A stretch of 64,000 nucleotides of DNA, taken from the sequence record MN655998.1, one strand, 5' to 3'. Of the stretch, positions 20,112-20,944 are shown piece by piece (position 1 is the stretch's first letter; every line of letters starts with the position of its first letter). The notes beneath the pieces are model-generated. The model saw only the letters and a list, made by a program, of their open reading frames with translations, ran no database searches and was not told the DNA's origin. Made by a program: the position numbers and the translations under genes. This DNA comes from Escherichia phage E26.

Positions 20112-20447
20112 TTATCCTTTCTTAAACAAATTGCGAAGCCAGTATACAAACGGGATTTCTTTAAACTTGAATTTCTCTATAGTTAATTCTTTAGTAGCAA
20201 GATGAATACCATAAGCATCATGTGTCACGATATGCCATTTTCTATAGTCCAAATGTGAACAACCGTCTGGATCTAGATTAATAAGAGTTTCTCGCTCACT
20301 AGGATTATTTTTCCACAATTTTGTAATCGGATCGCACATAATTCGACCTAGCGTACCATGAATAATCTCACAACGGTAAAGTTTTCCAGCAGTGAGATAG
20401 GCGCACCCGTCATAGTCGGTATAAACAAACACTTCTTTAACACTCAT
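20112..20447 (-). CDS. hypothetical protein, paralog family D
   Basis: GKLYRCEI...GCSHLDYRKW shares GK(L/M)Y and C(S/A)(H/Y)L motifs with next two ORFs; ATG at 20447. Confidence 0.5.
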   Translation of the reverse strand: MSVKEVFVYTDYDGCAYLTAGKLYRCEIIHGTLGRIMCDPITKLWKNNPSERETLINLDPDGCSHLDYRKWHIVTHDAYGIHLATKELTIEKFKFKEIPFVYWLRNLFKKG

Positions 20448-20478
20448 TTTAATACTCCTTTGTTGTTTCGATGGGGGT

Positions 20479-20507
20479 ATATTACTACCCCCGTTTTGTT
20501 GTGTCAA
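20479..20507 (-). promoter_or_regulatory. sigma70-type early promoter, -10 inside a hairpin loop
   Basis: TTGACA (20502-20507) N17 TAATAT (20479-20484); GGGGGTA/TACCCCC stem. Confidence 0.6.
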
Positions 20508-20768
20508 CTACTTTTTCAAGATTTTTTTGAGTGCATTCCAAAGACCTTTATTCTCAGGTTGTTTTGGTTCTTCGATCAGTGTCCACGGACGGTCGTCTAA
20601 GTATGCACAGCTTTTCAGAGAAATAAAAAGTTTATATCCTTTATCATCTTTGATGTAACCGTAGGTAGACATTCTTTCATCTGGCGTAAACTTATACAGT
20701 TTATTTGGGGTGATGTAAGATCTACTACTATAAGGTGTCATTACATATTTCATGGTACTAACTCCCAT
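20508..20768 (-). CDS. hypothetical protein, paralog family D
   Basis: NKLYKFTPDE...SCAYLDDRPW; start at 20768 or 20753. Confidence 0.45.
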   Translation of the reverse strand: MGVSTMKYVMTPYSSRSYITPNKLYKFTPDERMSTYGYIKDDKGYKLFISLKSCAYLDDRPWTLIEEPKQPENKGLWNALKKILKK

Positions 20769-20944
20769 TTATCACCGCGAAGATGAGAACATCTACCATC
20801 AATAAGTATAGTAATACGAAACCCCGCATCATCTTCAATATACCCGATAGTCGGTGGATGTTCGTCTTCTCGTGCCGGAGTAAAATCATACATCTTACCA
20901 GGCGTAATATCTTGTCCTTTATTGCTATTGGTATAAACTTGCAT
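20750..20944 (-). CDS. hypothetical protein, paralog family D
   Basis: GKMYDFTPAR...RCSHLRGDKW; ATG at 20944. Confidence 0.45.
   Translation of the reverse strand: MQVYTNSNKGQDITPGKMYDFTPAREDEHPPTIGYIEDDAGFRITILIDGRCSHLRGDKWELVP

Follow-up and report, generated by a model that had tools for sequence, protein, structure and literature searches.

Three Tandem Paralogs Upstream of regB

We analyzed a 64,000-nt window of Escherichia phage E26 (MN655998.1; all positions are those of this whole stretch), in which the interval 20112–20944 is filled exactly by three consecutive minus-strand open reading frames (ORFs), here called A, B, and C. The window is that of a Krischvirus (RB49-like), with 95%–97% identity to RB49, Phi1, GEC-3S, and other Krischvirus phages. 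The locus is present at 90% identity or more in all 58 matching Krischvirus records, and three or four hypothetical genes stand there among the Krischvirus annotations listed. Gene A (20944–20750, minus) encodes 64 amino acids (aa), MQVYTN...KWELVP; the protein is predicted to be a bare β-barrel domain, and a GGAG Shine-Dalgarno sequence (SD) lies 8 nt 5′ of its ATG. Gene B (20753–20508, minus) encodes 81 aa from MKYVMT, the barrel domain being followed by a C-terminal tail (GLWNALKKILKK). The start of B overlaps the stop of A in an ATGA, and because of this overlap the two genes are probably translationally coupled. Gene C (20447–20112, minus) encodes 111 aa from MSVKEV, with the barrel in residues 1–75, then two predicted helices, and the C terminus KFKFKEIPFVYWLRNLFKKG.

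Two longer gene models were discarded. An 86-aa version of B (start at 20768) overlaps B's own SD and is used neither by homologs nor by the GEC-3S annotation. A 131-aa version of C with a TTG start is judged over-extended because the ORF traverses a promoter (described below), and the homologs and the GEC-3S annotation use the shorter start. Gene C is also mislabeled "endoribonuclease" or "RegB" in MK962753 (JK32_00097), MW748999 (SKERS_232), and MK327932; similarity to RegB is absent, and the label in those GenBank records is probably a carry-over from the adjoining gene.

The first-pass annotation of this DNA had proposed that the three ORFs are paralogs sharing GK(L/M)Y(R/K/D)(C/F) near the N terminus and a later CSHL/CAYL...(K/R)W motif. 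The paralogy stands, while the motifs need amendment for B, which has NKLYKF in place of the GK form and CAYLDDRPW, with P and not K/R before the W. By BLASTP, A and B are 43% identical (E = 5e-13), B and C 30% (E = 5e-5), and A and C 30% (E = 1e-3). Each protein has a full-length significant match to a PHROG family of unknown function, A and C to phrog_6261 (E = 1e-27 and 1e-37) and B to phrog_15978 (E = 4e-43), and the two families are bridged by further matches of B to the former (E = 3e-5) and of A to the latter (E = 3e-7). These comparisons, well above chance, confirm that A, B, and C are true paralogs. A hidden Markov model (HMM) built from the three finds no fourth copy in the window, and in the complete RB49 genome it returns a single weak candidate elsewhere, of 55 aa (E = 0.011 genome-wide). 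This ORF (MTKLKCVAVDFELADSFVVGDEYDARHDGTCYYVEDEYGVEWAILPDDKCFEVVG; OZ035808.1, 48714–48941, outside the window) is without the otherwise invariant tryptophan W60 and may be a degenerate fourth relative.

Nine Krischvirus loci were compared for selection (Nei-Gojobori). The ratio of nonsynonymous to synonymous substitution rates is 0.22 for A, 0.19 for B, and 0.05–0.19 for C within one allele class; for the flanking nucleotidyltransferase and regB genes it is 0.04. All three are real protein-coding genes, on which purifying selection acts in a relaxed form.

A Broad Family of Small Phage Proteins

An exhaustive profile search yielded at least 146 clusters (50% identity) at an E-value of 1e-3 or better, mostly single-domain proteins of 57–75 aa. 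An alignment of 102 members gives the signature MxVxTxYxxxxYITAGKxY...GxIxDDxG...I...CAHLxxxxWxVV, in which only Y19 and W60 are invariant; T14, K17, I36, and C52 are each kept in 90% or more of the sequences. The core domain has a mean net charge of −3.8, and in 80% of members this charge is negative. Judged by this composition, the family would comprise neither enzymes nor nucleic-acid binders.

The C52-x-H54 pair, together with a frequent N-terminal Cys, raises the alternative of a small metal-binding or catalytic domain. Conservation lends it something: C52 is present in 93 of the 102 members, H54 in 82, and 38 have a Cys at alignment position 10; D38/D39 are conserved as well. We nevertheless hold it to be extremely unlikely, as no conserved four-ligand set exists, no enzyme or zinc-finger family is matched, and the substitutions (H54 to Y, F, or W in 16 members, B included; C52 to Ser in six) point to core packing and not to chemistry.

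Searches of Pfam, NCBIfam, and PDB sequences gave no meaningful match. Several weak library matches were taken as chance: DUF6501, which is matched by only 7 of the 102 members (best E = 0.0017, below the cut-off) and which no paper in the literature searched mentions; FosA-type models against C (17–19 bits, with cut-offs of 180–305); RNA polymerase subunit N and DPP4 propeller blades (E = 0.03–0.4); and MGP3_C. The top match of the exhaustive search, P0021 (5033 aa, E = 9e-55), was rejected because its score is an artefact of summed repeats, about 42 near-identical units at about 4 bits each. A word-indexed protein search with the 102-member alignment added hardly any new sequences, and a pattern search of IMG/VR was run with a 15-member subset of the family.

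Members are found in Krischvirus, in ~140-kb Vibrio phages, in Pectobacterium phage MA13, in the 51-kb Escherichia phage BubbaBully, in the Drexlerviridae phage Bas11, in a phage-type contig with RecT, SSB, and phage lysozyme, and in a dozen IMG/VR loci. All-against-all BLASTP of the flanking ORFs at 15 loci revealed no partner gene conserved across unrelated loci; given the lack of a recurring neighbor, the domain seems to act alone and not as part of a conserved operon.

Multiple copies are a habit of the family. Bas11 carries two adjacent true members (L004, 47025–47653), bas11_0078 (E = 3e-11) and bas11_0079 (E = 6e-5), the second with a helical C-terminal extension as in C. Two viral contigs (L019 and L020) have two copies each, 0.35–2.2 kb apart, and domains are also fused within one polypeptide, three in P0028 and P0032 and two in P0029 and P0033. 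The A/B/C array, with its coupled A–B pair, echoes these multi-domain fusions, which suggests that the copies act jointly. Weak family-like matches were also seen to Bas11 gp48 (37578–37943) and Bas59 gp42. One further sequence, P0005 (ENA, 111 aa), joins the first 28 residues of C to an MraZ-type (PF02381) sequence and is most likely a chimera of assembly or gene calling.

Predicted Fold and the Comparison with Gp54

The AlphaFold2 (AF2) model of A is entirely β, with a mean predicted local distance difference test score (pLDDT) of 81. In the model of C the barrel blocks have pLDDT values of ~83–96 except for a low-confidence insertion, and the helices (residues 76–90 and 99–109) are confined to the non-conserved C-terminal extension, leaving a β-barrel as the conserved domain. 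A and C are thereby confidently predicted to be small SH3-like all-β barrels. SH3, Tudor, and KOW barrels superpose on the models, with scores that indicate no more than a common fold class; a Foldseek search of the PDB gave nothing below E = 0.5. Known SH3-like barrels (eukaryotic SH3, Tudor, KOW, PsaE, and others) differ from the family in that no Pfam model carries its signature YITAGKxY...CAHLxxxxWxVV.

The best match to the model of A is Gp54 of phage Bas11 (PDB 9AXB), a non-essential 66-aa protein that binds and activates CapRel-SJ46 as a second trigger and whose barrel of six strands, with an extended loop between the first two of them, has been called a rare topology (PMC11578894). The model of A appears to have these barrel features, and the resemblance extends to size, to the character of a non-essential small protein of a lytic coliphage built on a small β-barrel, and to a physiological function that is likewise unassigned. 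For the model of C, however, Gp54 is no better a match than ordinary SH3 domains. By hhalign, the family profile aligns to the Gp54 sequence alone with a probability of 3.7% and to a six-member Drexlerviridae Gp54 profile with only 14.5%, a Gp54 HMM found nothing in the RB49 genome, and the Gp54 family is seen only in ~50-kb T1-like enterobacterial phages, Drexlerviridae where classified. Bas11 itself separately encodes true members of the A/B/C family, bas11_0078 and bas11_0079. A relationship by descent thus failed both the profile and the C-model tests, and Gp54 is the closest characterized analogue, not a relative.

The vs Slot and the Sponge Question

On the minus strand the gene order is Vs.6/GrcA-like, nucleotidyltransferase, A, B, C, regB, vs.1, vs, and a macro-domain gene. 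The flanks named in the first-pass annotation, a nucleotidyltransferase-fold gene and regB, were identified correctly. Upstream lies an NrdC.11/RlaP-type nucleotidyltransferase gene (20966–21664, minus; Pfam RlaP, E = 4e-14; PHROG 388, E = 1e-78). Downstream is the endoribonuclease gene regB (19685–20107, minus; Pfam REGB_T4, E = 3e-48; T4 RegB by phmmer, E = 3e-27), with its ATG 4 nt past the stop of C. A gene for a Vs.6/GrcA-like glycyl-radical protein (21751–22167, minus; T4 Vs.6 by phmmer, E = 5e-39) is the T4-syntenic left border of the slot. The T4 annotation has the order vs.6, vs.5, vs.4, vs.3, and then regB. Since homologs of T4 vs.1, regB, and vs.6 are kept in the window, the triplet and the nucleotidyltransferase gene fill the vs.5/vs.4/vs.3 slot, in agreement with the placement in the T4 vs region that had been proposed.

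Homologs of Vs.3, Vs.4 (Acb2), Vs.5, Vs.7, and Vs.8 were not detected in the complete RB49 genome, and the vs block that RB49 shares with a T4-type genome consists of vs.1, regB, and vs.6 only. In that T4-type genome phmmer recovered Vs.4 at E = 1e-58 as a control and no member of the A/B/C family was detected, a comparison of a single genome pair in a region where nearly every small gene differs.

One vs gene of T4 does encode a signal sequesterer, as the first-pass annotation stated: Vs.4 is the cyclic GMP-AMP (cGAMP) sponge Acb2 (PMC10097602, PMC10312549), an interlocked hexamer whose nucleotide-binding pockets are lined by helices (PMC10312549). From this came the suggestion that the triplet consists of diversified sponges, or of binding proteins more generally. 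In its strict form the reading would have the barrels oligomerize and sequester cyclic-oligonucleotide or related immune messengers, replacing Acb2 in its slot. The triplet is indeed placed where T4 carries vs.5, vs.4, and vs.3, and like Vs.4 its products are small, presumably early proteins from between vs.6 and regB; slight further support comes from the genome pair, RB49 being without detectable Vs.4 and the T4-type genome having Vs.4 and no family member. The conserved K17, Y19, W60, D39, and T14 are of the kinds of residue that contact nucleotides, and multi-copy and fused-repeat architectures could form inter-domain pockets. Known sponge families have mutually unrelated folds, so a new fold would be compatible with such a role.

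We nonetheless consider the sponge reading very unlikely. The family HMM scores 0–2 bits on each of the T4 vs.3–vs.8 proteins (1.0 bit on Vs.4), on which homology to them was rejected, and a phmmer query with Vs.4 has no hit either in the window or in the whole RB49 genome. Pfam models and solved structures of Tad1, Tad2/DUF2829, Acb1, Acb4, and Apyc1 gave no match, nor did any Pfam model match at E-values up to 1. Structure prediction, which had been suggested as a check, gives all-β SH3-like barrels, unlike the helix-lined pockets of Acb2 (PMC10312549), with no sponge or signal-binding protein among the structural matches listed; on the side of the fold it speaks against the proposal. The shared slot is itself weak evidence, as this early region is hyperplastic and nearly every small gene in it differs between T4 and RB49. 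The claim of diversified sponges is thus left without positive evidence, and the label "Acb2-like sponge", tempting on position, has been removed as unsupported; the broader alternative, that A, B, and C are binding proteins, is plausible.

Other features of the neighborhood may be mentioned here. The macro-domain protein, Tk.4-like and annotated "phosphatase", is encoded downstream of vs (18171–18626, minus); orphan antitoxin-like enzymes that neutralize DarTG1 were reported from T4-like phages in 2025 (PMC11825919). In the Hadza-gut Krischvirus L007, HNH-type genes (524–1099 and 2247–2774) are inserted between the vs.6-like and nucleotidyltransferase genes and beside an M15 peptidase gene. 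At the first of these sites the window has only an 86-nt spacer (21664–21751), and JK32 also has an HNH gene there.

Expression Signals and the Link to RegB

Directly 3′ of the B stop is a σ70-type early promoter, TTGACA-N17-TAATAT (20479–20507, minus; 10 of 12 matches in a scan), which is also marked as a promoter in the GEC-3S annotation. Both hexamers are invariant in the nine loci, and the first half of the spacer varies. Because this conserved promoter directly precedes C, sequence predicts that C and regB are an immediate-early unit with C as its first gene. A perfect 7-bp stem, GGGGGTA-GTAATA-TACCCCC (20472–20491, minus), encloses the −10 hexamer and is likewise invariant in the nine loci. 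It is without a following T-run on the coding strand, and could be a 3′ stabilizer of the upstream A–B transcript or a regulatory element.

The promoter scan found no promoter-like site between the nucleotidyltransferase gene and A, and that gene is probably co-transcribed with A and B. Farther upstream, a terminator-like hairpin with a T-run stands just 3′ of the vs.6-like gene (minus) and is overlapped by a promoter-like TTGGCT-N17-TATGAT with an upstream TG (sites 21717–21741 and 21695–21723 overlap), from which the nucleotidyltransferase gene could be transcribed together with A and B. In the equivalent gap of GEC-3S a terminator is annotated and a promoter is not.

The strong-site consensus of RegB is GGAGRAYARAA, that is, GGAG (or GGAU) in an A-rich 3′ context; RegB activity requires the cofactor S1, and the SD of RB49 regB is reported as GGAU (PMC3014915). 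The SDs of A (GGAGATTAAGA) and C (GGAGTATTAAA) are GGAG with an A-rich 3′ side, each agreeing with the consensus at five of the seven downstream positions. The regB SD itself lies within the final codons of C (tail codons, 20115–20174, minus), as GGAUAAUAAAA in the window and as GGAGAAUAAAA in four other Krischviruses, the latter a full match to the RegB consensus. A G/T polymorphism at 20108–20120 (minus; loci L001 and L010–L015) sets the regB SD and the end of C together. The GGAU form, in which C ends in ...KKG-stop, is that of the window, GEC-3S, PHB13, and kaaroe; in the GGAG form C gains a Glu (...KKGE-stop), as in Brandy, JK32, Skers, and SSG23. Autoregulatory cleavage by RegB at the GGAG form would cut the C message at its stop codon, and RegB control of the A, C, and regB messages is plausible from these sites.

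This arrangement invites the explanation that RegB cleavage is modulated by a small Sm/KOW/Tudor-like barrel with affinity for RNA or for ribosomal protein S1. It would account for the linkage of C and regB: C shares the regB promoter and ends 4 nt before the regB ATG, the C/regB junction is conserved in the nine loci, and RegB itself needs S1 (PMC3014915). Yet family members occur where RegB is neither annotated nor detected nearby (the Bas11 and P0102-contig loci), T4-type phages have RegB and no family member, and unrelated family loci have no neighbor gene in common. The core domains, moreover, are mostly acidic, and the linkage is accounted for more simply if a gene was inserted behind the regB promoter, ahead of regB itself. 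We rate a RegB cofactor as very improbable.

C-Terminal Tails

The tails of B and C have hydrophobic moments of 0.75 and 0.65, in the 98th–99.6th percentile of 11-mers translated from the window, and net charges of +5 and +3. By the same calculation the membrane-targeting helix of FtsA scores 0.78 and that of E. coli MinD only 0.27. The likeness to these helices lies in the C-terminal position, the positive charge, and a moment like that of FtsA, and for C a helix is predicted. It is a resemblance in physical properties and not homology, and in C the ribosome-binding site of regB, which overlaps the tail, imposes a constraint of its own. Similar tails occur in P0024, P0047, and P0073; in the divergent P0023 the tail carries substitutions and is conserved at the protein level. 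By analogy, the tails of B and C may tether the proteins to a membrane or to a partner.

A role directed at the envelope (superinfection exclusion, modulation of when lysis occurs, or a disturbance of cell division), in which these tails would bring B and C to the inner membrane, could build on the FtsA-like position, charge, and moment. It could also build on rI/antiholin and other early genes related to the envelope, which are found a few kb farther downstream and are transcribed in the same direction. It is quite unlikely, though. A and most family members are tailless, which places the conserved function in the barrel; neither a signal peptide nor a transmembrane segment can be read from the sequences; and nothing similar to Imm, Sp, rI, rIII, or a known division inhibitor turned up in the libraries searched.

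Allele Replacement and Recombination

Compared to L007, whose flanks are 90%–100% identical, the barrel-coding part of C has only 35%–40% nucleotide and 43% aa identity, and the middle of B 67%–75% nucleotide identity. The last 60 nt of C are ~98% identical, although the rest of the gene is replaced by a divergent allele. Cultured phages have two allele classes of B, with ~75% aa identity. In another sequence, P0008 (83 aa, on an ENA contig of 3081 nt), an N-terminal half from A continues in register into a C-terminal half from B, which is evidence of recombination between the tandem paralogs with deletion of one gene. The pattern resembles an arms race, and replacement of alleles within otherwise near-identical genomes is typical of host-interaction genes.

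Discussion

The reading that we prefer, to which we give a probability of roughly 40%, is that A, B, and C are early accessory protein-binding modules on an SH3-like barrel, serving host takeover or counter-defense and partly tethered to the membrane. All three would be early-expressed proteins of the dispensable type, built on one small domain and acting stoichiometrically and not as enzymes, each binding a host or host-defense protein. Gp54 shows that a small, non-essential phage protein can work by binding a protein. Three copies may provide multivalency or a wider range of targets. Through the ATGA overlap A and B would be produced together, and C would be produced from the immediate-early promoter common to regB. 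The C-terminal cationic amphipathic helix may hold B and C to a partner or to a surface, for which the inner membrane is the likeliest candidate. Because the SDs of A and C are GGAG and the C/regB junction offers GGAU or GGAG, RegB likely shuts off these messages after the early period.

Several points weigh against the binding-module proposal. The family has no member with a known partner, ligand, or phenotype. The conserved polar residues T14, K17, D39, C52, and H54, which the proposal leaves unexplained, could line a small-molecule pocket. Early transcription of A and B is inferred from position only. Nucleotide conservation in the tail of C could reflect the constraint of regB translation initiation or a recombination breakpoint, and not a function of the peptide.

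A bolder combination of these elements is rather unlikely. It holds that the family is an unrecognized, widespread class of phage counter-defense proteins, in which tandem or three-domain barrels would disable an oligomeric protein of the immune response or sequester one of its signals. The Krischvirus array would then have taken the slot of Acb2 (Vs.4), and possibly its role, and some members, like Gp54 and Ocr, might trigger other defense systems. The literature is silent on these genes where we consulted it: among the titles and abstracts listed for Krischvirus and Bas46-47 none concerns A, B, or C, the Acb4 screen paper has nothing on Krischvirus, and the text of the EVADES anti-defense catalog makes no mention of SH3-like or barrel-fold proteins.

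If the counter-defense class were real, the anti-defense repertoire would gain a fold and a multi-copy architecture that are both new to it; if the modest reading is true, the genes are one more accessory family of ordinary interest. Many recently described anti-defense proteins and defense triggers come from small early phage genes of unassigned function. Three "hypothetical proteins" have here become a defined, searchable family, with a signature, a confident fold prediction, at least 146 clusters, a habit of forming arrays, and allele swapping. Its breadth, arrays, and allele swapping make it a reasonable candidate for counter-defense or host-takeover screens, for which the Krischviruses and Bas11, a member of the Drexlerviridae, offer test systems, since both infect E. 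coli K-12. The A/B/C family, uncharacterized and broad, is of modest interest and worth testing.

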